Shown: one piece after another, positions 31,852 to 52,919 of the stretch | Layout of the letters: each line of letters begins with the position of its first letter | Position numbering within the stretch: position 1 is the first letter of the stretch | Assembly: GCF_054482525.1 (NCBI RefSeq) | Contig: NZ_CM137006.1 | Reading direction: 5' to 3' (one strand) | DNA length: 64,000 nt | Notes under the pieces: generated by a model | What the model was told of the DNA's origin: nothing | The model's database searches: none | What the model saw: only the letters and a program-made list of their open reading frames with translations | Made by a program: the position numbers and the translations under genes

Positions 31852-34655
<2,804 letters not shown>

Positions 34656-34659
<4 letters not shown>

Positions 34660-35600
34660 GCGTGGGCTCCTTCATGACGACGAATGCGCGGGTCCAGCGC
34701 GGCGTTGAGCAAATCAACAATCAAATTACAGACCACAAAAACCACCACCATCATCAGCGTAAAGCACTGGATCACCGGATAGTCACGGTTAAAAATCGCC
34801 GATACCGCATAGCGCCCGACGCCCGGCCAGGCAAAGATGTTTTCGATAATCATCGTCCCGCCAATCAGTTCGCCAATGTGCATCCCCACGGCGGTGATCA
34901 TCGGCAGCGAGGCATTGCGCAGAATATGACGACGTTCGGTCTGTTTGTCGTTCAGGCCGCGTAGCCGCGCCCAGGTGACGTGACGCTGACCGGCGACGTC
35001 CAGCATACTGGCGCGCAGTAGCCGTGCATTAATCGCCAGCGACATAAAGGCAATGGAAACCGCAGGCAAAATGATGTGCTGCCAGCCGCCGTAGCCCATC
35101 GCGGGTAGCCATTGCAGATACACCGAAAACGCCATCACCAGTAAAAACGCCAGCCAGAAGTTGGGCATCGACACGCCGAGAAACGCGATGAAACGTACGG
35201 CGAAATCCGGCAGACGATCGCGATGGCGCGCCGCCCAGATACCGAGCGGTACGGAAGTGAGCAGAATTAACACCAGCGCGGCACCTGCAAGTTCCAGCGT
35301 GGCGGGCAGGAAGTTCAGCATATCGTCCAGCACCGGGCGTTGGCTGGCGAATGAGATACCAAAGTCAAGATGCAGCGCCTTCCACAACCAGGTGCCGTAC
35401 TGGACATACAGCGGCTGATCCAGCCCCAGCATGGTGCGGGTAGAAGCCAGCATCTCCGGCGTCGGCGGCAGGTTAGACAGACGCAGATAATCGAGCGCCG
35501 GGTCGCCGGTGCCGAGGCGCAGCATCAGAAAAATGATCACCGAGGCGGCGAGCACCATCGGGATCAGCAGCAGAAAGCGGCGTAATACGTAACGCAACAT
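34656..35600 (-). CDS. nikB: Nickel ABC transporter permease NikB
   Basis: 314 aa polytopic permease of the DppB/OppB type. Confidence 0.9.
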
Positions 35601-37174
35601 TAAGGTTTCACCGGTTTAATCTGTTCGAACGGAATTTCGGTGGCGATCGGCGCGTAGGGGATGTTACCCAGCTCCGGTTTTGATACCACCATCATTGAGA
35701 TGTAACTGATAGGCAGATAAACCGCCTCGTCATGCAGACGGGTCAGAATGTCGCGATACAGCGCCTGACGTTGCGTTTCGTCATGGGTCGCCAGCACTTC
35801 GCCGATCTCTTTATCAATCAGCGGCTTGTCGGCTAATCCTTGCTGTGCCTGGAAATCAGCGTGCGACGGTACGCGCATTGAACTCAGGAAGGCGTGTGGA
35901 TCGTATGGCGCGCCCCAGGTGCGATGGAAAATCATGCCAAAACGACCGTCGCGCTGACGAGCATAGATACTGCTCTCTTCTTCGCCAACCAGTGAGACAT
36001 CTGCGCCAATCTGGCGCATATCAGCCTGAATGATTTCCGCCATCGATTTGCTTAACGCATCGGTGCCGATGAACGACAGTTCAATGCGCAGCGGCTGACC
36101 ATTTTTCTCGCGGATGTCTTTGCCCGCAGGAAGCGTCCAACCGGCTTTTTCCAGCAACGCTTTCGCTTTCTGCGGATCGTACTGGCGCGGTTTCAGGCCG
36201 AGGTTGGCGTAGGGCACAGAAGGGGCAAACAGGGTGTCGGCGACCTGCTGGGTGCCATACAACGCGTTATCAATCAGCGATTTTTTGTTTACCGCGTAAT
36301 TAAGAGCTTCACGTACGGCCAGCTCGTTGGTGGGGGCTTTGGCGGTATTGAGTGCCAGCATCACGGTTTCGATCGGCTGTGACAGTTGGGTGTGGTAAGC
36401 CGGGTTCTGGCTAAAGCGGGCGAAGGTATCGAGCGGTAATAACCCTTCATTTCCGTACAGCAGGTCGATATCGCCAGTTTCAAACGCCACCGCGCGGGTA
36501 GTCGGGTCCGGGATCACGTTAAAGGTGATCTTTTTAATCGCTGGCTTTTCGCCCCAGTAGTTTTCGTTACGGACGAAGACATCGTACTGATTCAGTTTCG
36601 ATTCCTGTAAAACCCACGGCCCGGTGCCAATCGGCGCTTTAATTCCGTTCATGGTTTCGTGGTTTTTAAACTGCGAGGGGGCGATAAAACGGAAAGGACG
36701 GGGCAGGGCCAGTTCTTGCAGGAAAGGATAGTAGGCGCTTTTCAGGGTGATTTGCAGCTCGTTTTTACTGAGTGCTTTGACATCAACAATCTGGTTTGCC
36801 AGCTCCAGCCAGGCGTGACGTTGACGGTTATCGAGCACTGCGCGGAAGTTTTCTGCCGCCGCCTCTGCATCAAACGGTTCGCCGTTGGAGAATTTCACGT
36901 CATCACGCAGGGTGAAGGTCCAGGTTTTACCATCTTCTGAATGAGTCCAGCTTTTTGCCAGCCACGGGATCACCGAACCGTCTGCCTGATATTTCACCAA
37001 TGGTTCATAAACCATGCTCTGGGCGAACATCTGGTTAGGCGTGTAAAGGTGCGGGTTTAGTGGCCCGACATTCACCGGCCAGGCGGTGGTGATTTCATCT
37101 GGTGCAGCGGCATGGACGATAAAAGACGCACAAGCCAGCAGCGCAAATAGAGTGCGGCGGAGTGTGGAGAGCAT
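35600..37174 (-). CDS. nikA: Periplasmic nickel-binding protein NikA
   Basis: 524 aa with signal peptide [25 protein letters not shown]; first gene of nikABCDE-nikR. Confidence 0.95.
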
Positions 37175-37211
37175 GGTAACCCCAATGGATTAAAATAGAT
37201 GGCGGAAATAA

Positions 37212-37239
37212 GTATGACGATTTTAAGTATTCGTCATAC
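37212..37239 (-). promoter_or_regulatory. NikR operator in the nikA promoter
   Basis: GTATGA-N16-TCATAC dyad (GTATGAcgattttaagtattcgTCATAC) about 40 bp upstream of nikA. Confidence 0.8.
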
Positions 37240-37284
37240 TGATAACCTGTTCTGGATCAAAAGATGGACAGTCGGGTGGGCGGA

Positions 37285-37872
37285 TCAGTTAACTGAATCG
37301 ATCCATTGCACACTGTCGGCGGAGAGCGTAAAGGGGGTGGGAGTGCAGATCGCCAGGCTTAAATTATCAAGCTGGCAATGGCTGACCGACAGTGATGACT
37401 GATAGGTGCTGTCTACGCTGACGATTTGCCAGGCGCTGCCGCCACGTTGTTTAACGATGGCTTCTTTGCGTGTCCAGATGCGCCAGAACATTTCCAGTTG
37501 CTGATCAGGATGCACGGCGTCCATCTCAGCGTGTTCCCCGAGGCTGAACACCGCGTTCGCCAGCCAGCGCCAGTTGGCGCGCGGGCGAATCACTTCGATA
37601 TCGCAGCCGACTTCGCCTTCATCGCTCAACAGCAGGGCGATATCGTCACCGCTATGGCTTAAGTTGAACCATAGCGGCGTTTCCGGCGCGAATGCAGGTT
37701 TGCCTTGTTCGCCATAGATGATCTCCGGTAGCGGGGAAAGCGTGTGCGAAAGCAATGCACGCCCCGCCAGCCAGCGTTCGCGTCGTGGACCTTGCGGTGC
37801 TTGATCGCGTAAAGCCGGTGGCAGTGGAGCTGCGCTTAAGGTCGAAACTTTCCCCAGAACTATCCGATACAT
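37285..37872 (-). CDS. acpT: 4'-phosphopantetheinyl transferase AcpT
   Basis: Start refined to MYRIVLGKVSTL, giving 195 aa; PPTase motifs (GEQGKPAF, WTRKEAIVKQ); starts 2 nt after the upstream ketosynthase stop, so it is the last gene of the operon. Confidence 0.85.
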   Translation of the reverse strand: MYRIVLGKVSTLSAAPLPPALRDQAPQGPRRERWLAGRALLSHTLSPLPEIIYGEQGKPAFAPETPLWFNLSHSGDDIALLLSDEGEVGCDIEVIRPRANWRWLANAVFSLGEHAEMDAVHPDQQLEMFWRIWTRKEAIVKQRGGSAWQIVSVDSTYQSSLSVSHCQLDNLSLAICTPTPFTLSADSVQWIDSVN

Positions 37873-37873
37873 A

Positions 37874-39103
37874 TCAGGGCCAACGTTTAATGATGATGGA
37901 TGTATTAATGCCACCAAAGGCAAAGTTGTTACTCTGCAAAAACTCACAATCAACTTTGCGGGCTTCATGCATGATGTAATCCAGCGCGCCACAATTCGGG
38001 TCTGGTTTATTCAGGTTTAGCGTAGGCGCAAACCAACCTTCGCGCATCATTTGCAGACTCATCCAGGCTTCGAGCGCGCCACAGGCACCAAGCGTATGAC
38101 CAAAATAACTTTTCAGCGAGGAGAGCGGCACATTATCACCGTAAATGGTTGCTGTCGCCAGACTTTCTGCCATATCACCGCGATCGGTCGCCGTACCATG
38201 CGCTGAAATATAGCCGATATCTTGTGCGCTTAACCCGGCGATTTTCAGCGATTGCTCCATACAATACTGCATGGTTTCGCGCTGCGGCTGGGTAATATGT
38301 GCCGCGTCGCAGTTAGTCGCAAAGCCGACGATTTCACCGTAAATGGTCGCGCCGCGCGCTTTGGCGTGCTCCAGTTCTTCGAGAATGAGCGTACCTGCGC
38401 CTTCACCAATCACCAGCCCGTCGCGGTTTTCATCGAACGGTGAAGGTGTGGTTTTCGGCGCATCATTGTGCTGGCTGGTGGCGAAAAGCGTATCAAATAC
38501 CGCTGCTTCTGAAGGGCATAACTCTTCGGCACCACCAGCAACCATCACCGTTTGATAACCGTGGCGAATGGCTTCCCACGCATAACCGATTGCCTGGCTG
38601 CCGGAGGTACAGGCGCTGGAGGTTGGAATCACCCGCCCGCGCAGGCCGAAAAAGAGGCCAGTATTAACGGCGGTGGTGTGTGGCATCATCTGCACATAGG
38701 TGGTGCCAGTGATGTTGTTCGTGTGCTTTTCCGTCAGCATGGTGGCGAACTCGCTCACCGGGCCGGTACTGCCGGTCGATGAACCGTACGCAATGCCCGT
38801 TTCGCCGCTGGTTAATATCGGATCGCCAATCAACCCTGCCTGCTCTAATGCCAGCTCTGTCGCACGGGTCGACATTTGCGACACGCGGCCCATCGCACGG
38901 ATACGCTTGCGGGTGTAATGCTCCGGCAGCGTAAAATCATCAACAGGCGCGCCAAGCAGGGTGTGCAGACCATCGTAGACCTGCCACTCCGGCATTTTGC
39001 GCACTGCATTCTCATACGCCAGCAGACGCGCGGAAACGTCCTGCCAGTTTTCACCAAAGGCAGTCACGCCGCCCATTCCTGTAATCACTACGCGACGTGT
39101 CAT
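37874..39103 (-). CDS. apeR: Beta-ketoacyl-ACP synthase (FabB/FabF-like), APE cluster, ApeR position
   Basis: 409 aa; active-site context IPTSSACTSGSQAIG and C-terminal HTLGACG. Confidence 0.8.
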   Translation of the reverse strand: MTRRVVITGMGGVTAFGENWQDVSARLLAYENAVRKMPEWQVYDGLHTLLGAPVDDFTLPEHYTRKRIRAMGRVSQMSTRATELALEQAGLIGDPILTSGETGIAYGSSTGSTGPVSEFATMLTEKHTNNITGTTYVQMMPHTTAVNTGLFFGLRGRVIPTSSACTSGSQAIGYAWEAIRHGYQTVMVAGGAEELCPSEAAVFDTLFATSQHNDAPKTTPSPFDENRDGLVIGEGAGTLILEELEHAKARGATIYGEIVGFATNCDAAHITQPQRETMQYCMEQSLKIAGLSAQDIGYISAHGTATDRGDMAESLATATIYGDNVPLSSLKSYFGHTLGACGALEAWMSLQMMREGWFAPTLNLNKPDPNCGALDYIMHEARKVDCEFLQSNNFAFGGINTSIIIKRWP

Positions 39104-39831
39104 AACATCCCTCCGTTGATGGAAATAACCTGGCGGGTGACGTAACCCGCAATATCAGACATTAAATAGCTGGCAAGCCCGGCAACTTCTTCCGCCTGGC
39201 CCATGCGTTTCATGGGGATCATCGACATTGCCTCTTTCAGAGCGCTCTCTTCCATTTCGATCATCCCGGTATCAATAAGCCCCGGCGCGATGCAGTTGAC
39301 GGTGATTTTGCGCTTCGCGAGTTCGATAGCCAGTGCTTTTGTTGCGCCGATAATTCCGGCTTTGGCAGCGCTGTAGTTCACCTGTCCGCGATTGCCCATC
39401 ACGCCGGAAACCGAGGACAGCGTGATGATTCGTCCACCCTGGCGTGCGCCGATCATCGGCATAATGCACGGCTGAATGACGTTGTAGAAACTGTCGAGGT
39501 TGGTGTGGATCACCGCATCCCAGTCGTCATCGCTTAAAGCCGGAAAAGCGGCATCGCGGGCGATCCCGGCGTTACTAACCACGCCGTACCAGGCACCGTG
39601 TTGCGCGATCTCGTGCTCCAGCACTTCCCGACACTGTTCGCGGTTTGCGACGTCGAAACTGAGCAAACGCCCGTTACCACCGTTAGCGACAATGGCATTC
39701 AGCGTTTCCTGAGCGCCTGCGGCGTCACGGTGATAGTGAACGCCAATGTTAAAACCGTCTGCCGCCAATTGGCAGGCGATGGCGCGACCAATGCCTTTGC
39801 TGGCACCAGTAACCAGAACTGAACGACTCAT
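39100..39831 (-). CDS. apeQ: 3-oxoacyl-ACP reductase (SDR, FabG-like), ApeQ position
   Basis: 243 aa; Rossmann motif TGASKGIGRAIA and catalytic YSAAK. Confidence 0.85.
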   Translation of the reverse strand: MSRSVLVTGASKGIGRAIACQLAADGFNIGVHYHRDAAGAQETLNAIVANGGNGRLLSFDVANREQCREVLEHEIAQHGAWYGVVSNAGIARDAAFPALSDDDWDAVIHTNLDSFYNVIQPCIMPMIGARQGGRIITLSSVSGVMGNRGQVNYSAAKAGIIGATKALAIELAKRKITVNCIAPGLIDTGMIEMEESALKEAMSMIPMKRMGQAEEVAGLASYLMSDIAGYVTRQVISINGGML

Positions 39832-40295
39832 CAGGACGCTCCTTGTTGAAACAGGGTGGTAAGTTCTTCCGCGGTCGGCTGGAAGGTGTTAATGCGGCCC
39901 GTTGCTTCGCCGTCGTTGATACTGCACTCAAAACTGCCGAAGCGATCGTCTTGCATCAGGAGTTTGACGGTAATGGTCAGCGTCTGGCCTGCGGGCAGAA
40001 TGCCAGCGGCGCAAAGCAATTCACGTGCGCCCAGTACCATCCCTAACTCAATACTGTTTTTGCCCTGCTGGTGGCGATGCCAGCCAGACCAGACGCCGAC
40101 GGTTTGCGCCATCAATTCAAGGGCAAACCAGCCAGGGAGATTGCCGTCCGGGTCGAGAAACGGTGCCAGTACGCCACTGGGCGAAACCGTCACGCGGCAC
40201 ACCGCGCTGTCATCGCTGACGCTCACCACGTCTTCCAGCAGTAACATGGGCGCGTCGTGGGGCAGATAAGCGCCGGGGGATAAATAGTGGCTCAC
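39831..40295 (-). CDS. apeP: Hotdog-fold 3-hydroxyacyl-ACP dehydratase (FabA/FabZ-like), ApeP position
   Basis: 154 aa; LPHDAPMLLLEDVV... typical of FabA/FabZ-like dehydratases; overlaps both neighbours. Confidence 0.7.
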   Translation of the reverse strand: MSHYLSPGAYLPHDAPMLLLEDVVSVSDDSAVCRVTVSPSGVLAPFLDPDGNLPGWFALELMAQTVGVWSGWHRHQQGKNSIELGMVLGARELLCAAGILPAGQTLTITVKLLMQDDRFGSFECSINDGEATGRINTFQPTAEELTTLFQQGAS

Positions 40296-41470
40296 GAAAC
40301 CCTCCCGAGCAGAATGCTGGCGTTATTGCCGCCAAAGGCGAAGGAATTGGACAGGATCACCGGACGTGCCAGCGGCTGTGGTTGTTCGATAATGCCGCAC
40401 GGTGGCAGCGTGGGATCGCGCGGCGACAGGCTGAAGTCCTGAGCGAGCAGCGGTAAATCACGCTGTAAAATCAACATGCTGATTGCCGCCTCGGTAATGC
40501 CCGCCGCGCCCAGCGTGTGTCCGGTCAAATGTTTGGTGGAACTGCAAGGTACGCGTTCGCCAAACAGGGCGTTAACCACCATCGATTCAATCTGGTCGTT
40601 GAGTTGTGTGGCGGTACCGTGCAGGTTGATATAGCCGACGTCATCTGGCGTAAGCTGCGCATCGGTCAGCGCCTGGTTAATGGCGCGGATCGCCCCTTCG
40701 CCCTGCGGATGCGGGGCCGAAATATGGTAAGCGTCGCTCGATTCACCAACGCCCAGTAACGCGATGGGCTGCGGTTCACGGGTTAATAACATCAGTCCCG
40801 CCCCTTCGCCAATGGTGATACCTGCGCGGTCACGACCAAACGGCTGACATAAGGTGGGCGAGAGCGATTCGAGGCTGTGAAAACCGTTAATCGGCATCCG
40901 GCTCAGAGTATCTGCGCCACCCACAATGGCGGCATCGACCAGCCCCGCTTCGATAAGCCTGCGCCCGCTGATCATCGCTCTGGCGCTGGAAGAGCAAGCG
41001 GTTGAAAGGGTATAAGCCGGGCCATCGAGCGCCAGCCAGTGGCTGAGAAAGCGCGACGGATCGCCAAGTTCCTGTTGCGCGTAGTGCCATGTGGTGCTCG
41101 GCTGTCCGTTGGTGCGCAGGTTAACGTGCGTGTCGCCCTCATGCAGGCCGGAGGTGCTGGTGCCAAGTACAATCGCGATGCGCTCGTGACCATATTTCGC
41201 GATAGCGTCATCAACCTGCGGCTGGATCTGCGCCAGCGCCGCCAGCAGGATCTGATTGTTGCGCGAGCGGTGCGCAGCGAATTTTTCGGGGATAAGCGGA
41301 AGCTCGCCATCCACGCCAGCCAGGACCGCCTGCGGATGCCCCTGCAACCAGCCTGCGCGCGGACGCATGCCGGGAGCGACACCGCGAGTCAGGTTGGCTG
41401 CGATCTCATCAAGGTTATTTCCCAGGGCGTTGATCATGCCGACGGCGGAAATATAAATCATATCAGTCAC
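40292..41470 (-). CDS. apeO: Beta-ketoacyl-ACP synthase, ApeO position
   Basis: 392 aa; active-site Cys context YTLSTACSSSARAM; HLTGHTLGAAG near the C-terminus. Confidence 0.8.
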   Translation of the reverse strand: MTDMIYISAVGMINALGNNLDEIAANLTRGVAPGMRPRAGWLQGHPQAVLAGVDGELPLIPEKFAAHRSRNNQILLAALAQIQPQVDDAIAKYGHERIAIVLGTSTSGLHEGDTHVNLRTNGQPSTTWHYAQQELGDPSRFLSHWLALDGPAYTLSTACSSSARAMISGRRLIEAGLVDAAIVGGADTLSRMPINGFHSLESLSPTLCQPFGRDRAGITIGEGAGLMLLTREPQPIALLGVGESSDAYHISAPHPQGEGAIRAINQALTDAQLTPDDVGYINLHGTATQLNDQIESMVVNALFGERVPCSSTKHLTGHTLGAAGITEAAISMLILQRDLPLLAQDFSLSPRDPTLPPCGIIEQPQPLARPVILSNSFAFGGNNASILLGRVS

Positions 41471-42047
41471 CTAAGTATTGAATGGTGATGTGGTATTTAA
41501 AGACATGCTGCTCAATGCTGATTGGCACGCGTTTGCCCTTGCGATTCAAATAGGTGATTTCCGTGACCAGCTTGCCGCTGGCGTTACGCAGCTCGCGTTT
41601 GTCACCGTTGTCGCGAAGTGTCCAGCCAGTGGGAAGTTGCGGCTGCCAGGCGCTAATCGGCCAGTGGCTGAGCATCACGTCAGCCAGTACCTGACTTGCG
41701 GGCGGTAACTGTGGGACGACGATCGATTGCTCGGCGCGTAGCCCTTGCGCATCGTAGGTCACCAGAAACAGGCGAATGCCGACCGACGACAGTCCGGCAA
41801 GGGTGATTTTCTGGTCGTCGGCGTTAAGCATCACTAGCAGCGACTGGGTTTTGCCGTTGAAGCTGCCGGTCAACAGTTGCTGGGAATTGACGGCGGGTGA
41901 AATCCCCGGCGCAGGCAGCGTGATGCGCGTGCCAGGTTGCAGCCACGCTTGCGGGCGGCCTTCCTGTTCTGGTTGCGAGTGGCTACAGCCGGTGAGGATA
42001 AGCGTAGCGGTCAGGGCGAACGCTCGCCAGAATGTGGGTTTGATCAT
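41463..42047 (-). CDS. apeN: Lipoprotein (DUF3261-like), ApeN position
   Basis: 194 aa with lipoprotein signal peptide MIKPTFWRAFALTATLILTGC. Confidence 0.65.
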   Translation of the reverse strand: MIKPTFWRAFALTATLILTGCSHSQPEQEGRPQAWLQPGTRITLPAPGISPAVNSQQLLTGSFNGKTQSLLVMLNADDQKITLAGLSSVGIRLFLVTYDAQGLRAEQSIVVPQLPPASQVLADVMLSHWPISAWQPQLPTGWTLRDNGDKRELRNASGKLVTEITYLNRKGKRVPISIEQHVFKYHITIQYLGD

Positions 42048-44362
42048 TTTTTTGTTCTCTTTTTATCGGGCATGGCCAGCGGCGAAAGCAGGAAGGCGGT
42101 GAAAATACCGCTCACCAGCACAATGCCAAAACTGCTGATGGCCTGGGTGGCGCTGAATACCAGCATTCCCAGCGTCAGCAAGGTGGTGAGCATTGCCAGC
42201 GTGATCGCCAGTAGCGAAGTTAATGGTGTGCCGCGCGGATTACTGAAAAACAGCGTGTAGTTGATGCCGATGCCAAGCACCAGTACCAGCGCCAGCAGCG
42301 AAAAGAGATTCACCGCCTGCCCGCTCATCGCCAGCACCGCCAGACCGCAGCCCAGTGAAAGCACCGAAGGCACCAGGCTGATAAACCCTTTGCGCCAGCC
42401 GAGGCGGGCCACTGCGCCGCAGGCAATTACTGCCAGCGCCACCAGCAACAAGCCGGTTAACACATAACGGTAAAGTGCGAACAATTCATCAAAGGTGTTT
42501 TTGCGATCAACCCAGGCAATGCCACAAGGGTAATAGCTGGAGATTTCCTGTAGCGCCGCGCTATTTTTAACCCCTTCAACCGGCACCAGCACGCCGCTTG
42601 CGCCATTTTCCAGCGTCAGCCACAGCAGACGCCAGCCTTCACTGGCGGGGCTTGCCAGCCATTCATCAACCTTCACTGGCATGGCGTTAAGATCCGGGTT
42701 CACCGCCGTCAGCCCGGCATTTTGCAGTGCTTTTGTTACCGTCGGGGCAGCCGTTTTCAGCAGGTCTAAATCTTCCTCCTGCCGCGCCAGGGAGTTCAGC
42801 GGAATGGTGCGGTAGTTGCTGATAAGGCCGTCTTTTTTCGCTTTCTCCAGCGAGGTGGTAAATGTCTCCAGCCGTCCCAAGGTTTGCTGTGACGAATCGC
42901 CGTAAACCACAAACCATTTTTGATCGACGCTTTGTCCGGTCAGGGCGGTGATGGCTTTCTCCTGCGCCAGAATATGCTGCGGTAGCGCCTGTAACTGCGA
43001 GATATCGTCATCGACGCACAGCATTGACATCCCCGCCAGCGAAAACAGCGCCAGCGCGACGGGCAGACCCCGCGACAGTTTTTTATTACGCCGCCACGCT
43101 GCCAGCCAGCGCAGCATCAGCGCCATCGCTGGAACCGGACGCACCGGCAGGCCACGGCACAGCCACGGATGCCAGAACAGGACGGTCAGACAGGAGGCGC
43201 TCAACCCGACGGCGGCAAAAATCGCCATCTGGCGAATGCCGGGGAAGGGGGCGAGCATCATAATCAGATACGCCGCCACGGTGGTGAGCAGCGCCAGCAG
43301 CAGGGCATTGCGCACTTTCGCCAGGCTTTGCCACGGCGAAACGTCATTGCCGTGCACCATCCGCTCGGTGAGGTAATAGAGCGTGTAGTCAGCGGAAATG
43401 CCGATAACGCTCATGCTCATCACCAGCGTCATCAGGTGTAATTCGCCGAAAATCAACAAGGTGGCGACCGTTCCCGCCAGCGCGCCGATGCCGATGGAAA
43501 TCACACACATCAGCAACGGGCGCAAAGAGCGGAACACCGCCACAATCAGCAATATCACCCCCAGCAGCGTTGCCACGCCCAGGGTGGAGATATCCTGCTT
43601 CGCCTGTTGGCTGGCGTAATCGCTGTAAAACACCGTGCCGCGTGAGAGCAACTGAGCCTGCGGGTAACGCGTTTTCAGATCCTTTTCCAGCGTATTCAGG
43701 GTCGTGATGAGCTGGTGGGTTTGCTGCATATCAAACGACGATCCCGCCAGTTCGCCGTGCAGCAGATACCAGTAGTTGCCCTGGGGATCCTGCGTCACCA
43801 GCCAGCCGTCCATCAGCCGCAAACGCTGGCCGTTTTTCGCCATCGCCAGCTGCGAGCCACGCATTAACATCAGCGGATCGTTTTGCAGCTCCTTACCGCT
43901 TACCCCGGAGAACGCAGAATAAAGCTGGGAGAGGATCCACTGCGCCTGCGCTTCGCCGCCGTTTTGCAGGCGCGCGCGGGTGTCGGGGTCAATCAGACCG
44001 TTGCGATGCTGCCAGAAAAACGCTCCCCACGCCTGCTGGCTGGCGGCATCCATTGGCCCTTTAACGTCGCCGAGCGCAGCGGATTTTTGCAGCAGCGTCA
44101 GCCACTCCTGAGCGACCCTGGGATTAGCCTCTTTACCGGGGCTGACCAGCCACACCAGTTGGCGGTCCAGACGCTGCATAAAGCCGTCATTCAGCGCTGG
44201 GGGAATATCGCCCATCGCCTGTTTGGGTAACATAGCCAGTACGCTACTGTTCAGTCGTGATTGCGGCAACAGGATCAGCAACGCCGCCGCCATGACCAGG
44301 CAGACGATCCCCCATAACAGCGCCGGGCGTTTACTGGGCGGCAAAACGTTGGCGTTCGTCAT
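42044..44362 (-). CDS. apeM: MMPL/RND-superfamily membrane exporter, ApeM position
   Basis: 772 aa with two blocks of TM helices separated by soluble domains. Confidence 0.75.
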   Translation of the reverse strand: MTNANVLPPSKRPALLWGIVCLVMAAALLILLPQSRLNSSVLAMLPKQAMGDIPPALNDGFMQRLDRQLVWLVSPGKEANPRVAQEWLTLLQKSAALGDVKGPMDAASQQAWGAFFWQHRNGLIDPDTRARLQNGGEAQAQWILSQLYSAFSGVSGKELQNDPLMLMRGSQLAMAKNGQRLRLMDGWLVTQDPQGNYWYLLHGELAGSSFDMQQTHQLITTLNTLEKDLKTRYPQAQLLSRGTVFYSDYASQQAKQDISTLGVATLLGVILLIVAVFRSLRPLLMCVISIGIGALAGTVATLLIFGELHLMTLVMSMSVIGISADYTLYYLTERMVHGNDVSPWQSLAKVRNALLLALLTTVAAYLIMMLAPFPGIRQMAIFAAVGLSASCLTVLFWHPWLCRGLPVRPVPAMALMLRWLAAWRRNKKLSRGLPVALALFSLAGMSMLCVDDDISQLQALPQHILAQEKAITALTGQSVDQKWFVVYGDSSQQTLGRLETFTTSLEKAKKDGLISNYRTIPLNSLARQEEDLDLLKTAAPTVTKALQNAGLTAVNPDLNAMPVKVDEWLASPASEGWRLLWLTLENGASGVLVPVEGVKNSAALQEISSYYPCGIAWVDRKNTFDELFALYRYVLTGLLLVALAVIACGAVARLGWRKGFISLVPSVLSLGCGLAVLAMSGQAVNLFSLLALVLVLGIGINYTLFFSNPRGTPLTSLLAITLAMLTTLLTLGMLVFSATQAISSFGIVLVSGIFTAFLLSPLAMPDKKRTKK

Positions 44363-44936
44363 CGGTCAGTTGCGCTGGCGTCAGTTGATGTTGGGTAAGA
44401 GCGATATCGGTGCGATCGCCCTGTTTATCATTAAGCTGAATGCTCTCCAGATAGGTTTGCCCGGCGAGATCGATGGTGTTGAAAATTTTATCCAGCGGCG
44501 TGGTGGTCGGCGTCAGGCGCAGTGTCCAGCGGCCTTCGCCTTTGTCAGCAAATTCGACGCGGAAGTTTTGTTCCAGCACTTTGCGATCGGCCTGGAACAG
44601 CGCGCGCAGCAGGTGGTTAAACTGGAACATCTGCGGGTTATTTTCTGCCGTGATAATTTGCGGCGGCTGACCGTTGATCACCTGCACCATGCGTTTATCG
44701 TCCAGCAATAGTTGCATGGGGAACGGTGAGGTTTGATCCCACAACAGCCCCTGGTCGCGGGCGATCAACATCTGGCCCTGAGATCGTAGCGGCTGCGGCA
44801 GATCTTTAATCGTCCGGGTTTGATCGAAATGGGCGCGGATCACTGGCTGTTCGGTAAAGCGTTGCTGAAGATCGTCCAGGTTCAGGGCGCTCACAAACGG
44901 GCTAATCAGCAGCGCCAGCAGCGGTAAAAATTTCAT
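44331..44936 (-). CDS. apeL: LolA-like outer-membrane lipoprotein carrier protein, ApeL position
   Basis: 201 aa with signal peptide MKFLPLLALLISPFVSALNLDDL; ATGA overlap with the upstream gene. Confidence 0.65.
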   Translation of the reverse strand: MKFLPLLALLISPFVSALNLDDLQQRFTEQPVIRAHFDQTRTIKDLPQPLRSQGQMLIARDQGLLWDQTSPFPMQLLLDDKRMVQVINGQPPQIITAENNPQMFQFNHLLRALFQADRKVLEQNFRVEFADKGEGRWTLRLTPTTTPLDKIFNTIDLAGQTYLESIQLNDKQGDRTDIALTQHQLTPAQLTDDERQRFAAQ

Positions 44937-45355
44937 GGTTTGACTCCCATGCGTTCAAACAGAATATCGGGGCTGACAAAGCACAGTTCGCGGCTTTGCT
45001 CGTCGACCGCGACCTGAATGGTGTATCCGGTGGTGGCGCGTTTTCCCGTTTCGGCATCGAAAATCTGATAGCCAATCCGCAGACGGTTTTCGAACTCTTC
45101 GATATGCGCACGCACGCGGATGCGTTGCTCAAAGGTGAGGGCGTGGCGATATTTCACCCTCGCATCGACCACTGGCCACAAATAACCGGACTCTTTCATC
45201 TGCCGATAGCCGTAATTGAACTGGTTGAGCAGCGCCTCGCGGGCCACTTCAAAGTAGCGAAAATAGTTACCGTGCCAGGCCACGCCCATCATATCGACGT
45301 CGTGAAAGGGAATGGTCAGCTCGACTTCAGCGGTAAATCGGGGATCGTTAAGCAC
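44933..45355 (-). CDS. apeK: Hotdog-fold acyl thioesterase (4HBT family), ApeK position
   Basis: 140 aa; N-terminal ...IPFHDVDMMGVAWHGNYFRYFEVAREALL typical of 4HBT/YbgC-type thioesterases. Confidence 0.7.
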   Translation of the reverse strand: MLNDPRFTAEVELTIPFHDVDMMGVAWHGNYFRYFEVAREALLNQFNYGYRQMKESGYLWPVVDARVKYRHALTFEQRIRVRAHIEEFENRLRIGYQIFDAETGKRATTGYTIQVAVDEQSRELCFVSPDILFERMGVKP

Positions 45356-45358
45356 CCT

Positions 45359-47035
45359 TTACTCCTTGTCCTGGACTTCCGGCAGTTGCCAGAAATCGAA
45401 AAAATTAAACCAGTCGAGGGGGGACTGGAGCGCGTAATATTCCAGACGCGCGGCGTAATGATCGATAGCGTTTTGCAGCGCCTGCTGGCGTTCGCCACGC
45501 GGCAACAGCAGCGGGTCGGCAAAGGTTTCGCAGTGAATATGCAGCTTGCCGTGCTGGCGCAGCGCGAAAATCAGATTCACCGGGCAGCGCAAAATAGACG
45601 CAAGAATAAACGGCCCCTGCGGGAAGGGCGCAGGCTGGCCCATAAACGGACTCCAGCAGACTCGCCAGTCGCCGCCGCGTTGCGGGTTGACGGCGATGCG
45701 GTCACCGACAATCGCCACCCATTCGCCGTTATCCAGCTTCTCTTTGAGCAGGATGGCGGTTTCTGGGCCGATATCCGTCACCGGGAGCAGGTTGATGCCT
45801 GCCTGCGGGGCCATCTCCTGCATTATCTGTTTAAAGCGTTGGGCGTTTTCGCTAAACACCAGCGCGTTAATGGTTTTGTAGCCCTGAATTTTTGCCAGCG
45901 CCCGGCACACTTCCACATCGCCAAGATGCGAGGCCAGCAGCAATTTGCCGCGCGGATCGCTGACGTTAAGTGCCGCTTCTGCGCCTGGTGCAAACAGCAC
46001 ATCACGCCCGAGTTGCAGCTCGCCGCGCCAGCTGGCGATTTTGTCGAGCATGGCGTTGCCGAAACGTAGAAAGTGCTGATAGCTGTTGATTTTTGCTGCC
46101 AGTGGTTGTTGTTGGCGCACACGGGCGAGCCAGGCTTGCGACGCTTTACGCGCACGAGCAGCGGTGAGCCAGTAGACGCCCACCACCGGGTAAAGCAGCG
46201 CGGTAAACGCAGTTCTTCCCAGCAGACGCCAGACCAGCAGCATCAGGCGCATTCCCCATAATCCTTTCACTTCGCTCTGCCGCGCCCAGTGGCTGGAAGA
46301 GCTGCGCATCAGCAGTGAAGGAATACGCGGCAACATGCCGAAAAACAGACGTGTGTGCATGAGCGAGATGCGGACGTTATCTTTCAGGGCATCAAAATGC
46401 GAAAGCCCGTCCAGTGGATAGGTGACGCGGGTCGGCACGAAATAGCTGGTGTTTCCCTGCCAGTAGAGGCGCACCATCACTTCAGTGTCGAAATCCATCC
46501 GCTTGCCGATGGTGGCGTATTTTGCCAGTTGCAGCGTTGGCGCAACCGGATAAACGCGAAAGCCGCACATGCTGTCTTTCAGTTGCAGGGAGAGCGTTTC
46601 GATCCATACCCAGACGTGGGTGACCCAGCGCCCGTACAGCCGTGAGCGGGGGATGGAGTCATCGTAAATCGGCTGGCCGGAGATCAGCGCCGCAGGCTGC
46701 TGTTCAGCGAGTGCCAGCAGTTTAGGGATGTCTTCAATCGCGTGCTGACCGTCAGCATCCACCTGTACCGCATGGCTGAAGCCCGCGTCTGCCGCCGCCT
46801 GTAAGCCGCGCATTACCGCCGCGCCTTTGCCTGCGTTTTCTGCCAGGCGAATTAAGGTCACGCCAGGCTGTTCGGCAACCAGATTATCCAGTTGCTGTTG
46901 CGTGGCGGCATCGCTGCCGTCATCCACCACAATACAGGGCAGATTAAATGGCTTAAGACGCGCCAGCACGCCCGGCATCATCGCACCGTGGTTGTAGCAG
47001 GGGATCAACACACAGGGAGAAAAGTTTACCGACAT
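45359..47035 (-). CDS. apeJ: Bifunctional glycosyltransferase family 2 / lipid A-type acyltransferase-like protein, ApeJ position
   Basis: 558 aa; N-terminal GT2 motifs (CIVVDDGSD, VQVDADGQH) and a C-terminal acyltransferase-like domain. Confidence 0.7.
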   Translation of the reverse strand: MSVNFSPCVLIPCYNHGAMMPGVLARLKPFNLPCIVVDDGSDAATQQQLDNLVAEQPGVTLIRLAENAGKGAAVMRGLQAAADAGFSHAVQVDADGQHAIEDIPKLLALAEQQPAALISGQPIYDDSIPRSRLYGRWVTHVWVWIETLSLQLKDSMCGFRVYPVAPTLQLAKYATIGKRMDFDTEVMVRLYWQGNTSYFVPTRVTYPLDGLSHFDALKDNVRISLMHTRLFFGMLPRIPSLLMRSSSSHWARQSEVKGLWGMRLMLLVWRLLGRTAFTALLYPVVGVYWLTAARARKASQAWLARVRQQQPLAAKINSYQHFLRFGNAMLDKIASWRGELQLGRDVLFAPGAEAALNVSDPRGKLLLASHLGDVEVCRALAKIQGYKTINALVFSENAQRFKQIMQEMAPQAGINLLPVTDIGPETAILLKEKLDNGEWVAIVGDRIAVNPQRGGDWRVCWSPFMGQPAPFPQGPFILASILRCPVNLIFALRQHGKLHIHCETFADPLLLPRGERQQALQNAIDHYAARLEYYALQSPLDWFNFFDFWQLPEVQDKE

Positions 47036-47379
47036 AGGCGGATCTTCCCGCTACTGGCGGTGTGGCGGGCGTCACCGTCGTGACGCTGATAGCTAAAGCT
47101 CAGAATCTGGCGTTCTTCCTGCCAGTTAAGCGTGAGCGTGACGCGGTTTTCCGGCAGCAACGGGGACTGGAATTTGATGTTCTGAATAGAGTGAAAACGC
47201 CAGCCAGGCGCGAGCAGGGCAAGCGCGTAGCTCATCGCCCAGTCGATTTGTGCAACTCCTGGAAGTAACGGCTGCACGGCAAAATGACCGCGAAACCAGA
47301 ACAGATCCGCCCTGAGATGCAGAACAATTTCAAGGTGATTCGCTTGTGCCTGATGGCGCTCGATTTCATGGGGCTTCAT
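47026..47379 (-). CDS. apeI: Hotdog-fold dehydratase (FabZ-like), ApeI position
   Basis: Start refined to MKPHEIERH (AGGAG RBS 8 nt upstream); contains FRGHFAVQPLLPGV. Confidence 0.7.
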   Translation of the reverse strand: MKPHEIERHQAQANHLEIVLHLRADLFWFRGHFAVQPLLPGVAQIDWAMSYALALLAPGWRFHSIQNIKFQSPLLPENRVTLTLNWQEERQILSFSYQRHDGDARHTASSGKIRLCR

Positions 47380-48727
47380 GAAATAACTCCTGTAATTGCG
47401 CATAGACACGCTTGTTCATACTGTTTACTGGCATTTCATCAATAACGCGCCAGTAACGCGGAATAGCAACTGGCTCCAGGGTCGGGCGCAGTAATCGCCG
47501 CCAGGTCATTTCCTGGCTATGCCCGCCGCCGTTCTGCCATTGCAGATGAGCTTCGTCATCCAGCACCAGCAAAACGCCGATGCTCTGACGCCCGCCGCGC
47601 GTAACGGGAACTGCCGCCGCCTCGCGAATGCCGTCCAGCGCCAGCAGACGTTGTTCTACTTCCTGGAGTGAAATACGTTTTTCTTCAATCTTAACGATGC
47701 GCCCACGACGCCCCATCAGATGGAACTGACCGTCCTGGCTAAACTGCAAGAGATCGTCGAGCAACAGGCCGTTATCTTCCGCTATCAGCGGTGAAAAGAG
47801 GCGAAATGCTTCACCTTCGACCTGGAAGTGCATACCTGGAAAGGGCCGCCAGCGGCGTTGCTCTTGTTCGCGGTAACGCCAGGCAATGACGCCGGTTTCC
47901 GTGCTGCCGAAGATTTCATCAGGCCAGACGCGCAGCCAGCTCTCGGTATATTGTACGTCCTGCCACGGCAGCTCACCGCCAGCAGAGAGAAGCACCTGAA
48001 CAGGCGGCGGGGATAGCTGAGCATCCAGACGCTTCAAAAATGCCGGGCTGCTGATGAAGATATAGCGATGCTGGTGACTCAATGCGGCAAACTGTTCGAC
48101 ATACCAGAGCATGGCGGCGTGCAGCGGTAATCCCAGCGCCATTGGCAGGAAAACGCGAAAAGTCAGGCCGTACAAATGCTGCGGCAAAACGGAACCGACG
48201 ACACGACATCCGGCAAGACGTGCGCCTAATCGTTCAGCCAGCAGTTCTGCTTCACGGTCCAGCAAATGAACAGGCTTAATTACCCGCTTTGGCTGCCCCG
48301 TAGAACCGGAGGTAAACAGCTCGATATAAGCGTCTGGCGCTATAGCGGCAAAGGTGAATGATTGTGTCGCGACTTGTGGGGAACTTGCTACCAACAGCAA
48401 TGAACCTTGCCAGTTAAGTTCGCTGTCGCTAAGTACACCATCGAACAGTTCACGTTGCTCATTAAGCTGGATGACACGGTTATGCCCCGGAAGCACCGGC
48501 GTTTTTCCGGCGTGTAGCGTGGCGAGCAGGGCAACGATAAATAGATAGCTGTTCTCAAAGCACAGCGCCCAGCGTTCACCCGGCTGTTGCTGCAAGCGGC
48601 AGATAAGTTGCGCGACATCGTGACGCAAATCGCCCAGTGTCCACGAGCTTTCGTCCAGCCACGCAATGGGCGTGTCATCAGGGCGTGGCGCAGTCAGCCA
48701 GCGTGCAAGCGGTAAGGTCTGCTTCAT
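47366..48727 (-). CDS. apeH: AMP-dependent synthetase/ligase (acyl/aryl-CoA or acyl-ACP ligase), ApeH position
   Basis: AMP-binding signature LFTSGSTGQPKRV; start refined to MKQTLPLARWL, giving an ATGA overlap with the upstream gene. Confidence 0.8.
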   Translation of the reverse strand: MKQTLPLARWLTAPRPDDTPIAWLDESSWTLGDLRHDVAQLICRLQQQPGERWALCFENSYLFIVALLATLHAGKTPVLPGHNRVIQLNEQRELFDGVLSDSELNWQGSLLLVASSPQVATQSFTFAAIAPDAYIELFTSGSTGQPKRVIKPVHLLDREAELLAERLGARLAGCRVVGSVLPQHLYGLTFRVFLPMALGLPLHAAMLWYVEQFAALSHQHRYIFISSPAFLKRLDAQLSPPPVQVLLSAGGELPWQDVQYTESWLRVWPDEIFGSTETGVIAWRYREQEQRRWRPFPGMHFQVEGEAFRLFSPLIAEDNGLLLDDLLQFSQDGQFHLMGRRGRIVKIEEKRISLQEVEQRLLALDGIREAAAVPVTRGGRQSIGVLLVLDDEAHLQWQNGGGHSQEMTWRRLLRPTLEPVAIPRYWRVIDEMPVNSMNKRVYAQLQELFHEAP

Positions 48728-49305
48728 GAGCGATCTCTTTTTATCACCTGACGGCGCACCAGCCATTCACCTGCCATTAACGTTCCCATCAACAAATAAG
48801 CAATCATGCCGTTCCAGGCGGTCCATAACGACATATCGCCATAAAGCGCGGTAAAGAGGGCAATTCCGCCGTTAATGATGAAAAAGCCGCACCAGATTTG
48901 CGTGACACGGCGGGTATAGCGCACGCCCTTTTCCGGGAGGTCTGGCTCCTGCAAACGTGCCAGCCGCTCAACTATCGGCATTGTCGACCACAGCGAACCG
49001 CCAAAAACCGCCAGCATGATCGCGTTAACCACTACCGGGTAAAACAGCAGTAGCTGGTGCGTTTTCAACAGAAAGCTGGCGACACACAATGCGATGCCCA
49101 CGACAGCGACGATTTGTGTGACGGCTTGTAGCGGCCCCGCCCGGCGACGGGTCTGGCGCAGGCGCAACAAAAGCAGCAACGCTATTAGCGGCAACAACCA
49201 GTGCAGGCCGTTATGCGCCAGGCCAAACCAAATCACAAACGGCCAGGCGAGCAGCAATAATCCAGTCAGCAGCTTAATCATCGGTAGCGAGCGAATGCCC
49301 GACAT
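48724..49305 (-). CDS. apeG: Small integral membrane protein, ApeG position
   Basis: 193 aa with about five hydrophobic helices. Confidence 0.6.
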   Translation of the reverse strand: MSGIRSLPMIKLLTGLLLLAWPFVIWFGLAHNGLHWLLPLIALLLLLRLRQTRRRAGPLQAVTQIVAVVGIALCVASFLLKTHQLLLFYPVVVNAIMLAVFGGSLWSTMPIVERLARLQEPDLPEKGVRYTRRVTQIWCGFFIINGGIALFTALYGDMSLWTAWNGMIAYLLMGTLMAGEWLVRRQVIKRDRS

Positions 49306-49309
49306 CAGA

Positions 49310-49561
49310 TCAGGCTTCTTGTAGCAGGCGTTCTACAGCCTCTACGACATCCTGAACTGTGCGCACTGCTTTAAACTCTTCCGGCTTGATTTTCTTACCG
49401 GTTTTCTTTTGCAGGTGCACAATCATGTCAACGGCGTCGATGCTGTCCAGTTCCAGATCTTCGTACAGGCGCGCTTCAGGTTTGATGTCCTGCGGATCGA
49501 TTTCAAACAGCTTAACCAGCAGGGCTGAGACTTCCTGATAGACGGTTTGTTGTTCTGTCAT
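49310..49561 (-). CDS. apeF: Acyl carrier protein, ApeF position
   Basis: 83 aa; phosphopantetheine-attachment context LELDSIDAVDM. Confidence 0.85.
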   Translation of the reverse strand: MTEQQTVYQEVSALLVKLFEIDPQDIKPEARLYEDLELDSIDAVDMIVHLQKKTGKKIKPEEFKAVRTVQDVVEAVERLLQEA

Positions 49562-49572
49562 GATGGCTTTCC

Positions 49573-49830
49573 TCAGGCACGTTGCGCAGCAATGAAAGAG
49601 GCCAGAGTGGCGACGGAGAAAAAGTGCTGACGCATCTCTTCACTTTCCGCAGAAAGTACAACGCCATATTGATTTTTCACTGCCAGCCCCAGTTCCAGGG
49701 CATCGATGGAATCCAGTCCTAAACCGTCGCCGAACAGCGGCGCATCGGTCTCGATATCATCAGGAGTCAACTCGTCCAGATTGAGGGTACTGATGATGAG
49801 GTTTTTAATTTCCAGATAAAGCGCTTGCAT
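49573..49830 (-). CDS. apeE: Acyl carrier protein, ApeE position
   Basis: 85 aa; attachment context LGLDSIDALEL. Confidence 0.85.
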   Translation of the reverse strand: MQALYLEIKNLIISTLNLDELTPDDIETDAPLFGDGLGLDSIDALELGLAVKNQYGVVLSAESEEMRQHFFSVATLASFIAAQRA

Positions 49831-50626
49831 TATTTATTCCTGAGAGAGGTAAACAACCTTGTTGTAATTGAAGCAAAAGATGCCGGTTTAACTGCCTTGC
49901 TGCCAGCGCCGGTTCTTGTGAAGTTGCATCGTAAAATTTATTGATTTCAACCCGACCATGGACTTCAACCGTAAAAAACGGCCGGTCAGGTGGAACGTCA
50001 TACCATTTACTTTGTTTATCCAGCAGATGCTCGCTACAGCCGATCGTCACGATGCGTAAATCGCTGGCACAGCGCACGGCAATATTCGCCGCCCCGCGCT
50101 GCAGCGTCATTTTTTCACCGGGCTTCGTTCGCGTGCCTTCGGGGAAAATCAGGATAGTGTCACCCTGTGCCAGTCGCTGTTGGCAGCGGGGTAACAGGGT
50201 TTCAGCTTCGCTGTTGATTAAATAATCTGCCGCCCGCACGACGCCGCCAAGAAAAGGATTTTTTAACAGCGCGCTTTTCACCAGGCAGTCAGTTTCTGGC
50301 ATGACTGACGCCAGCAGCACGTAATCGATCAGCGTGGGATGATTGGCTACGACGAGGCAACCGCGTTCCTGACGTAAAATTTCAGCGCCATCAATACGAT
50401 AATCCAGCACGCCAAGCCCTTTCGCGACAGTTAAAAACAGGCGAAAACTGGCGGCAATGCTGCGACGCGCCAAACGACGGCGGCGGGAAGTATCCCACAC
50501 CAAAACTAACAATATGTTAAACCACACGACAGAAAGCAGCAGGCCGCCGAGACCAAACAGGGCAAAACATAACCCGGTCATGACCAGTCGCCAGGTCCAC
50601 TCCAGACGTGACATCAGCTTACTCAT
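49805..50626 (-). CDS. apeD: Lysophospholipid/1-acylglycerol-3-phosphate-type acyltransferase, ApeD position
   Basis: HX4D motif NHPTLID and N-terminal TM helices; start refined to MSKLMSRLEW (ATGA overlap). Confidence 0.75.
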   Translation of the reverse strand: MSKLMSRLEWTWRLVMTGLCFALFGLGGLLLSVVWFNILLVLVWDTSRRRRLARRSIAASFRLFLTVAKGLGVLDYRIDGAEILRQERGCLVVANHPTLIDYVLLASVMPETDCLVKSALLKNPFLGGVVRAADYLINSEAETLLPRCQQRLAQGDTILIFPEGTRTKPGEKMTLQRGAANIAVRCASDLRIVTIGCSEHLLDKQSKWYDVPPDRPFFTVEVHGRVEINKFYDATSQEPALAARQLNRHLLLQLQQGCLPLSGINNASALSGN

Positions 50627-51345
50627 CTGCGGCTCCAGCGCCATTGCACGCGCTCGCCAGGCAGTGAAAATGCGTCTGCATTTTGTAAATAGTGCTGTAA
50701 AAACAACATGCTTTGCGGCAGTGATGTTTCATTGCCCGCAATGGCTGACTGCGTTTCACATTGCCAGTCATCGCCAGCTTCAATCACCAGCGCGACGGCG
50801 TACGGCCAGGTCGGCATTTCTGATGGCAGTTGTGGGTGATAAAACTCAGGCAGAAAGCCATCAAAATCGACCATCAGCACGCGCTGGTATCCCGCTTGTA
50901 ACAGGCTAAGCACTTCACACAAACCTTGCTGGAAAGTGTCGCGACCAGCAGAAAGCGATGACGAAACGATCGGCTGTTTGGCCGCAATGGTCAGGTTACC
51001 CACGGAAGAGTTGTGTACGGAGAGCGCGAAGTCGGTCGGAGAAAGCGCCTGTTCAGTTGCCAGTGCATGAACAATGCGGTAATTGCGCTCCAGTTCGCCA
51101 TGACGACTGGTATACAAAACGGCGTCTGGCTGATGGCGGCGTAGCATTGCCAGACCGCATTCAACAGCCAGTTTGCTGCCTGAACTAAGGCGGCGGGCGG
51201 TCATCATTGGCAGTTCACTTAATTTTGCCAACGGCGCGGCAGGGTCAATCGCCCACGGCTGGCGCGACCATGCTTGCCATTGCTGCGCTTCGCTAAGTCC
51301 AGGCGCCAGTGCCTGCCAGTCGGTAATATTTAATGTAAATTTCAT
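50623..51345 (-). CDS. apeC: Truncated ketosynthase-like protein without a canonical active-site Cys (chain-length-factor-like), ApeC position
   Basis: About 240 aa, with SVHNSSVGNL where a KS would carry its catalytic Cys; start refined to MKFTLNI (the track start is a TTG). Confidence 0.6.
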   Translation of the reverse strand: MKFTLNITDWQALAPGLSEAQQWQAWSRQPWAIDPAAPLAKLSELPMMTARRLSSGSKLAVECGLAMLRRHQPDAVLYTSRHGELERNYRIVHALATEQALSPTDFALSVHNSSVGNLTIAAKQPIVSSSLSAGRDTFQQGLCEVLSLLQAGYQRVLMVDFDGFLPEFYHPQLPSEMPTWPYAVALVIEAGDDWQCETQSAIAGNETSLPQSMLFLQHYLQNADAFSLPGERVQWRWSRR

Positions 51346-51385
51346 CAACGCGCGCCCGCGGTAAACCAAAATTATTAAGTGACGA

Positions 51386-52453
51386 TTATTTCTTTTGGCA
51401 TATCAAAAGTGTATGCCCAACGCCTAAATTATCGTGGCGCTCTGCTACCTGGAATCCTGCTTTATTCAGATAGTCGTAAAATTTCTCTGCACTATAGAAA
51501 CGGCTGTTACCGTTTGCCATGCAGGTAAAATAAAGTGAGGACGCGTTCAGGCTAAATGATGCTGCTTCAAACCGCTGCGCATCCCAGAACAACTCCATGA
51601 TGCAAACTTTTGCGCCAGGCTTCATTACGCTGGCGATTTTGCTGAGTATGCTAATTATTTGTTCGGGTGAAAAACAGTCTAAAAATTGGCTCATCCACCA
51701 GATATCAGCCTCGCCCGGTAATGGGGCATCGCTTAGCATATCCACCGCATGGAAATCTATGCGATCAGAAAAACCTGCATTCGCGATATTTTCTTTCGCT
51801 AGTACGATTTGTTGTGGCAGATCTAATAACGTCACGGCGATGTTTTCATTGTATTTGCAGCAACGCAAAGCCCACTTACCCGTATTGCCGCCTACATCGT
51901 ACAATGTTGTGGGGTTGTTGGCGAATACATAAGGCAGTGCGGCGTTAAATGCGCCATCTGAATAGTAATGATCAAACGCAAACCAGCTTTCACGAGCGGC
52001 GTCTGGTAATTGTGAAAGTGCCGGATATATCGTCGGCCAGTCGCCAAATACTTTTAACCCGGACGGTTTTCCTTCATTGAGTGAATCGGCGAGGAAGAAG
52101 AGCCCCTGGTAACAGACATCCTGGGTGAAATCCATATTCACGCGAGTCATAGTGTCATGCAGGAGGTAATGACCGATTTTCGCCAGGTAATACATTCCCT
52201 CTTTACAGGTAATAATTCGCCCGCTTAAGCCCATATCTAACAGAACGCTGGCCGCATATTCGTTGATATGGCTATGTTCGGTGATATCAGCCAGCGTTGC
52301 GCCATGTTTGCCTTGCCGATCCAGATATGAAAGTACACCCGCATTACGTAGGCAGAGTGCTGTTTGAAAAAGCATAGGGGCAAAGGCAATGCGTTGAGCT
52401 TCGGTAATCGCATCCAGTGCGCTAAGAGAATCCTGTTCGTACATGTTGGGCAC
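51386..52453 (-). CDS. apeB: SAM-dependent O-methyltransferase, ApeB position
   Basis: 355 aa; methyltransferase fold with YDVGGNTGKWA-type SAM-binding glycine motif; track start is a GTG, first ATG three codons later. Confidence 0.75.
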   Translation of the reverse strand: MPNMYEQDSLSALDAITEAQRIAFAPMLFQTALCLRNAGVLSYLDRQGKHGATLADITEHSHINEYAASVLLDMGLSGRIITCKEGMYYLAKIGHYLLHDTMTRVNMDFTQDVCYQGLFFLADSLNEGKPSGLKVFGDWPTIYPALSQLPDAARESWFAFDHYYSDGAFNAALPYVFANNPTTLYDVGGNTGKWALRCCKYNENIAVTLLDLPQQIVLAKENIANAGFSDRIDFHAVDMLSDAPLPGEADIWWMSQFLDCFSPEQIISILSKIASVMKPGAKVCIMELFWDAQRFEAASFSLNASSLYFTCMANGNSRFYSAEKFYDYLNKAGFQVAERHDNLGVGHTLLICQKK

Positions 52454-52512
52454 AACCTGTTAAGAGGGAATTAAATTATTATCGGACCGCAGCGGCCCGA
52501 CTTTAGGAAGAA

Positions 52513-52890
52513 TTATAAATCTGCGCCCGCTGACAAATTCAGTTGAATATCTTTGTCGAGATTGCGGACCCAGCGATTGTAGTTTTTATGAATTTGTCCG
52601 CCTGACGCTTGTAGGTTCTGGCTATTTTCATAATTGATATCGTAGCTGGATGCCGTGTAGTTAATGCGAATTTCGGCTGAATGATCGCGTGACTGTTGAC
52701 GTGCTTTAATTACGCCTTGTCCGGCTTCGGACATAATCCATTTGCGTTCAACGCCAGCTTTCAGAATCGCTTTTTTCACTTGTTCCTGGGTATGACCAGC
52801 GCTGACGGTTGAGTGAACCTGATCAATTGGCGCAGTACGCGCGCAACCCGCTAAAGCACCCACAACAGCAATAGCCGCAAACCATTTCAT
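52513..52890 (-). CDS. Small lipoprotein, first gene of the operon
   Basis: MKWFAAIAVVGALAGCART (lipobox LAGC), 125 aa; the track ORF start at 52902 gives a 4-residue extension; IS1 lies 14 bp upstream. Confidence 0.6.
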   Translation of the reverse strand: MKWFAAIAVVGALAGCARTAPIDQVHSTVSAGHTQEQVKKAILKAGVERKWIMSEAGQGVIKARQQSRDHSAEIRINYTASSYDINYENSQNLQASGGQIHKNYNRWVRNLDKDIQLNLSAGADL

Positions 52891-52904: not shown

Positions 52905-52919
52905 GGTAATGACTCCAAC

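Follow-up and report, generated by a model that had tools for sequence, protein, structure and literature searches.

Orientation of the aryl-polyene-type cluster and acpT relative to the NikR-controlled nikABCDE promoter of an Escherichia coli strain

The nickel-regulated operon nikABCDE-nikR is located next to a long gene cluster in this strain, and the short gap between the two contains an inverted repeat. This arrangement raises the question of whether the nik promoter is intact and whether, and in which direction, transcripts of the neighbouring genes could enter it. The initial annotation had recognized a GTATGA-N16-TCATAC dyad in the 110 bp between the nikA start and the acpT stop, had interpreted it as a NikR operator at the end of a long accessory operon, and had proposed that read-through from this operon runs antisense into the nik promoter region.

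The NikR operator and its genomic neighbourhood

In the window, i.e., the whole 64-kb stretch of DNA that was analysed, the perfect dyad GTATGA-N16-TCATAC occurs once, at positions 37212-37239 on the minus strand, where it reads GTATGACGAATACTTAAAATCGTCATAC (GTATGACGATTTTAAGTATTCGTCATAC when read on the plus strand). No perfect match was found in 100 dinucleotide-preserving shuffles, and the two further matches that appear in the window when up to two mismatches are allowed correspond to chance level. The dyad lies inside the 110-bp gap between the nikA ATG (37174) and the stop codon of acpT (37285-37287), at a distance of 37 nt from the ATG, and the initial annotation had placed it correctly. 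Its sequence is the one published for the NikR operator of nikABCDE (PMC7055735). The nikA promoter is reported to be repressed by Ni-NikR and to depend on FNR (PMC9434800), and Ni-dependent NikR binding and repression of nik have been reported for the K-12 sequence, to which the dyad is identical (PMC7055735; PMC9434800). Judged by its hexamers with N16 spacing, its place upstream of nikA and the cognate nikR gene encoded in the same window, the dyad is the known NikR operator of the E. coli nikABCDE promoter, located at its normal place. This confirms the operator assignment of the initial annotation; as a textbook operator in its usual position, already known, it adds nothing new on nickel regulation.

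Gene calls were taken from the RefSeq annotation of the near-identical strain E. coli PCN033 (100% identity over 36900-37600), which differs from the window by four mismatches in ~40.7 kb compared and by an IS1 element present in the window only; protein families were assigned by NCBIfam. Equivalog-level matches were obtained for NikA, the nickel ABC transporter substrate-binding protein (35600-37174, minus strand; TIGR02294, 838.6 bits), for NikR, the cognate repressor (31852-32253, minus strand; NF002815, 235 bits at a cutoff of 83, and TIGR02793), and for AcpT, a 4'-phosphopantetheinyl transferase (37285-37872, minus strand; NF007676, 394.6 bits). According to the annotation, nikB, nikC, nikD, nikE and nikR together occupy 31852-35600 on the minus strand. 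On the other side of the spacer, acpT is separated by a gap of 1 nt from apeR, the nearest gene of an annotated 18-gene aryl-polyene-type cluster (O-island 138) that extends from apeR back to apeA (37874-52890, minus strand) and is composed of co-oriented, mostly overlapping genes. All genes from nikR to apeA are encoded on the minus strand, and yhhT is located beyond the cluster. The same co-directional order of acpT and nikA, with the same 110-bp spacer, is found in K-12.

A plus-strand ORF starting with ATG (37199-37402, 67 aa), antisense to the 3' end of acpT, was considered as a gene; NCBIfam gave no match for it, and it is probably spurious. The ORF begins exactly at the coordinate at which the initial annotation had set the start of its feature. 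At the far end of the nik operon, a hicA/hicB toxin-antitoxin pair is located at 31101-31732, between yhhJ and nikR. In K-12, the yhhJ-nikR region presumably contains an rhsB element.

Architecture and conservation of the nik promoter

The acpT-nikA spacer (37175-37284, minus strand) holds the whole nik promoter. In the centre of the operator we found a -10-like hexamer, TAAAAT (37220-37225, minus strand), which would serve as the -10 element. Farther upstream, at 37247-37260 on the minus strand, an FNR-type site, TTGATCCAGAACAG, combines one perfect TTGAT half-site with a degenerate second half-site, AACAG, that matches the FNR box at three of five positions. Class II FNR promoters are defined by an FNR box, TTGAT-N4-ATCAA, centred at -41.5, which the site at 37247-37260 resembles. 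We infer a start of the nik mRNA at 37212 (+/- 2 nt, minus strand), a position 7 nt after TAAAAT and 41.5 bp from the centre of the FNR site; with a start at about this place, the geometry would be compatible with a box at -41.5. A simple sigma-70 scan found no promoter in the nik promoter region, which is expected because the promoter is activator-dependent and does not count as positive evidence for it.

In the mechanism that we propose, nik would be transcribed from a weak sigma-70 promoter whose -10 element, TAAAAT, is part of the 28-bp NikR operator. FNR, bound at the site centred ~41.5 bp upstream of the putative start, would provide class II activation under anaerobic conditions. As the -10 element is buried in the operator, bound NikR would occlude RNA polymerase: the Ni-loaded repressor is expected to cover both the -10 element and the start site and so to switch the promoter off. 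We consider it very likely, with a probability of roughly 0.93, that the region is the canonical promoter-operator of E. coli nikABCDE-nikR, a core sequence with class II activation by FNR, occlusion by NikR and neighbours in sense-tandem orientation. The sequence, position, strand, conservation and architecture of the region come from the present analysis, and NikR binding and FNR dependence come from the literature cited above.

Of 5,426 complete E. coli genomes, 5,425 contain the 69-bp segment that leads from the operator to the nikA ATG (37175-37243), and 5,128 have it in identical form, so that an intact operator is the rule in this species and not notable. Beyond E. coli, one scan for NikA relatives yielded 80 species loci. 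Of these, 75 have an operator, called at two or fewer mismatches, ahead of nikA, whatever the upstream gene, at 8-41 nt (mostly 19-41 nt) from the approximate nikA start codon, with the exception of two Escherichia loci that carry insertions. All 71 Enterobacterales nikA loci have TAnAAT at operator positions 15-20 (TAAAAT in 54), and in 69 of the 71 a TTGAT is located exactly 21 nt upstream of the operator. This cross-species comparison shows that the N16 of the operator is not free: the supposedly unconstrained 16-bp spacer is conserved because it carries the predicted -10 element.

The two Escherichia loci with insertions belong to cryptic-lineage genomes. In Escherichia sp. MOD1-EC7003 (locus L017, 2852-2963), ~112 bp are inserted between the NikR operator and the ribosome-binding site of nikA; this insert is an intergenic repeat that is dispersed in E. 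coli genomes (median, 8 copies per genome), and we take it to resemble ERIC. In Escherichia sp. E1V33 (locus L015, 2532-2970), ~440 bp, in which a GC-rich unit of 81 bp is tandemly repeated 3.1 times, are inserted directly after the operator, which is thereby located ~470 bp from the nikA start, and part of the right operator arm is repeated beside nikA. A different rearrangement is seen in E. coli EC96 (locus L012, 1733-2651), where IS26 truncates nikA after ~150 bp and joins it to asd; the remaining nik operon and the intervening genes are absent from this strain, and the operator is kept.

acpT, the variable island and an IS1 insertion

The initial annotation had described a long accessory operon, with acpT as its last gene, that abuts the nik promoter. 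The adjacency is real, since acpT directly follows the ~15-kb co-oriented cluster at 37874-52890. The accessory status does not extend to acpT itself, however: all but one of the 5,426 complete E. coli genomes (5,425) have the acpT-nikA junction, which makes acpT a core gene. The apeR-acpT junction, in turn, occurs in 824 of the 5,426 genomes (~15%, the window included). The variable island begins ~20 bp upstream of the acpT ATG, and island-negative genomes match the window to about that point. K-12 retains the last ~20 bp of apeR upstream of acpT (window positions 37873-37892), and the other boundary of the island is at the yhhT stop codon (54059). These remnants are consistent with the published view that the cluster was lost from K-12 by deletion. 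After its yhhT stop codon, K-12 carries a 34-bp stretch without counterpart in the window (locus L002, 4916-4969).

The arrangement of acpT and nikA is not special to strains with the cluster, as K-12 and other island-negative strains share the 110-bp spacer. Each of the 11 E. coli strains sampled has a spacer of this length, and two haplotypes were found, which differ only at three positions upstream of the operator (37244, 37261 and 37268). The K-12-type spacer is present in island-negative strains as well as in the island-positive strains O157:H7 FRIK944 and A30. The type found in the window is shared by the island-positive strains PCN033 and CH4796 and by the island-negative strain 144, and its T/T/T combination occurs exactly in 201 of 5,426 genomes. 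All three differences spare the TTGAT half-site, the -10 hexamer and the operator; one of them precedes the TTGAT half-site by 1 nt, and the weak -35 region contains another. An adaptation of the spacer to the island was considered and rejected, since both haplotypes occur with and without it.

Outside Escherichia, acpT is located upstream of nikA only in some Citrobacter and in one of two Superficieibacter loci. Citrobacter amalonaticus and C. sedlakii (loci L020 and L022) have both apeR and acpT, with ~1.6 kb between acpT and nikA, indicating that another gene lies in between. The operator still adjoins nikA in these two species.

The cluster encodes two KS, a CLF, two ACPs, an AMP-binding enzyme, dehydratases, FabG2, a methyltransferase, an acyltransferase, a GT2 protein, a thioesterase, a LolA-like protein, an MMPL transporter, a DUF3261 protein and two small proteins. 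Based on the PCN033 annotation, it thus contains the gene set of an aryl-polyene cluster, i.e., KS/CLF, two ACPs, an adenylating enzyme, DH, KR and the remaining genes in the published order. The aryl-polyene cluster of E. coli CFT073 comprises 18 genes in 15.5 kb, is equivalent to O-island 138 of O157:H7 and relies on the 'orphan' transferase AcpT for activation of its carrier proteins; production of the aryl-polyene pigment has been shown for this strain (PMC8253772).

The IS1 element that distinguishes the window from PCN033 is 768 bp long (52905-53672, minus strand; insA at 53342-53617 and insB at 52920-53423, minus strand) and is flanked by a 9-bp target duplication, TAATGAGAC, at 52896-52904 and 53673-53681. 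It is inserted 14 bp upstream of the apeA ATG in the orientation of the cluster and pushes the native upstream region 777 bp away. Its position between apeA and this region probably lowers transcription of the operon. In the genome collection, IS1 was also found at other positions of the same yhhT-apeA interval, in the same orientation, in four genomes (see loci L094, 1339-2036, and L095, 1887-2584): in Eco_23-3511 the element is inside apeA, and in JX21CE8 and two human isolates it is found just after yhhT. This suggests repeated IS1 insertion at the head of the aryl-polyene cluster.

Transcription from acpT towards nikA and comparison with known systems

The initial annotation had seen no strong terminator after acpT, and our searches agree with it. 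A consensus scan of 36900-38200 detected no canonical intrinsic terminator, and no GC-rich stem with a loop of 3-8 nt and a U-tract is present downstream of acpT, where the only hairpin is the operator itself. An Rfam search of 36500-38500 gave no match at E <= 1. With no Rfam match and a fold z-score of only -1.97, a structured RNA in the spacer was rejected. In a transcript that reads through from acpT, the operator (37211-37240, minus strand) would form a hairpin with a 10-bp stem and a 10-nt loop, followed by UAUUUCC (UUAUUUCC after a 9-bp stem), with a predicted energy of -11.5 kcal/mol and ~4 GC pairs.

Which transcripts could reach the nik promoter depends on the strand of the neighbouring unit. 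Antisense read-through, in which transcripts of the accessory operon would run against the nik promoter and act by collision or as antisense RNA, could draw on the missing canonical terminator after acpT. However, nikA, acpT and all 18 cluster genes are encoded on the minus strand, so that their transcripts run in the same direction, and acpT and nikA are co-directional in K-12 as well. A convergent arrangement, with facing units on opposite strands, is absent at acpT-nikA, and no plus-strand gene faces the nik promoter, the sole plus-strand ORF (37199-37402) being the one without a family match. The antisense proposal of the initial annotation is impossible with this gene order, and we assign it a probability close to nil. 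With all genes on the minus strand, read-through from acpT would instead enter the nik promoter in the sense direction, as a tandem arrangement, and, given that the acpT/aryl-polyene unit is co-directional with nikA, this is the only conceivable form of cross-talk.

A hairpin in the path of such transcripts brings up another explanation, namely that the operator palindrome doubles as an intrinsic terminator or insulator that halts acpT transcripts before nikA. The 10-bp hairpin with the following UAUUUCC speaks in its favour, as does a median of 5 T in the 8 nt after the operator across species. Yet the hairpin fails the terminator scan with its 10-nt loop and AU-rich stem, and among the 1,387 hairpin-plus-T candidates of the window it takes only rank 206, with energies of -19 to -23 kcal/mol for the best terminator-like structures. 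Selection for RNA pairing could be expected to leave its trace in the asymmetric operator positions; over 49 distinct operators, the departures from symmetry comprise 30 of the G.U type vs 23 of the A.C type. This lack of a bias to G.U pairs, which gives no sign of RNA-level selection on operator symmetry in the sequences compared, indicates that the dyad is explained by binding of a symmetric protein. A role of the operator as terminator is therefore weakly supported at best, and we regard it as very improbable.

Sense read-through would mean that, where the island is present, transcription of the aryl-polyene operon and acpT proceeds across the 110-bp spacer into nikA, causing FNR-independent nik expression or occlusion of the nik promoter, with NikR as a possible roadblock. 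It would be expected to produce additional transcripts that include nikA, to occlude the promoter or to meet a NikR roadblock, and not to cause the convergent collision or antisense RNA of the antisense proposal. The co-directional genes, the 1-nt distance between apeR and acpT, and the absence of a canonical terminator, with a sole hairpin that is weak (-11.5 kcal/mol, 10-nt loop), argue for it, and the short spacer would leave little untranslated RNA for loading of Rho. In contrast, the spacer gives no indication of adaptation to the island: the island-positive strains O157:H7 and A30 have exactly the K-12 spacer, and the window haplotype is also present in the island-negative strain 144. 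Furthermore, acpT and nikA are absent from the 3'-end and operon datasets that were searched, with no transcript ends or operon calls for acpT-nikA in the supplements of PMC7815308, PMC6131387, PMC8765615 and PMC5956150, and the main text of an RNA-seq paper on TosR, which is cited as inducing the aryl-polyene cluster, contains neither nik genes nor acpT. In the window, moreover, IS1 separates apeA from its native upstream region. Taking both sides together, we infer from the gene layout that some sense read-through into nikA, with NikR as a potential roadblock, is plausible; the full reading, with consequences for nik expression in island-positive strains, is possible and on balance rather unlikely. 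Improbable, in our view, is the farther-reaching idea that nickel uptake of island-positive E. coli is partly coupled to expression of the pigment cluster via acpT-nikA read-through, or that NikR forms a nickel-dependent roadblock to it, and that IS1 upstream of apeA alters this coupling in the present strain.

The preferred reading thus remains that of a canonical nik promoter-operator with co-directional neighbours. The main use of the analysis is the correction of the strand of the neighbouring unit; its significance is otherwise small.

Compared with the nikABCDE promoter of K-12, the 28-bp operator and the 37 bp to the nikA ATG are identical, the spacer has the same 110 bp, and both sequences have acpT as their upstream neighbour and nikR at the operon end. 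The window differs by three substitutions upstream of the operator (37268, 37261 and 37244). With class II FNR-activated promoters, the nik promoter shares a TTGAT at a fixed distance from a TAnAAT -10 sequence (69 of 71 species), whereas its second half-site is degenerate (AACAG) and its start is putative. The cluster corresponds to APE_Ec of CFT073, as far as the published description of the latter allows the comparison, in its 18 co-oriented genes over ~15 kb, in their predicted functions and order, and in acpT directly following it; in contrast to CFT073, the window has IS1 14 bp upstream of the first gene. Finally, transcriptional interference between tandem, co-directional units, or promoter occlusion, is a general concept. 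The gene layout described here resembles it in that only 25 bp, without a terminator, separate the end of an upstream co-directional unit from the activator site of the promoter that follows.
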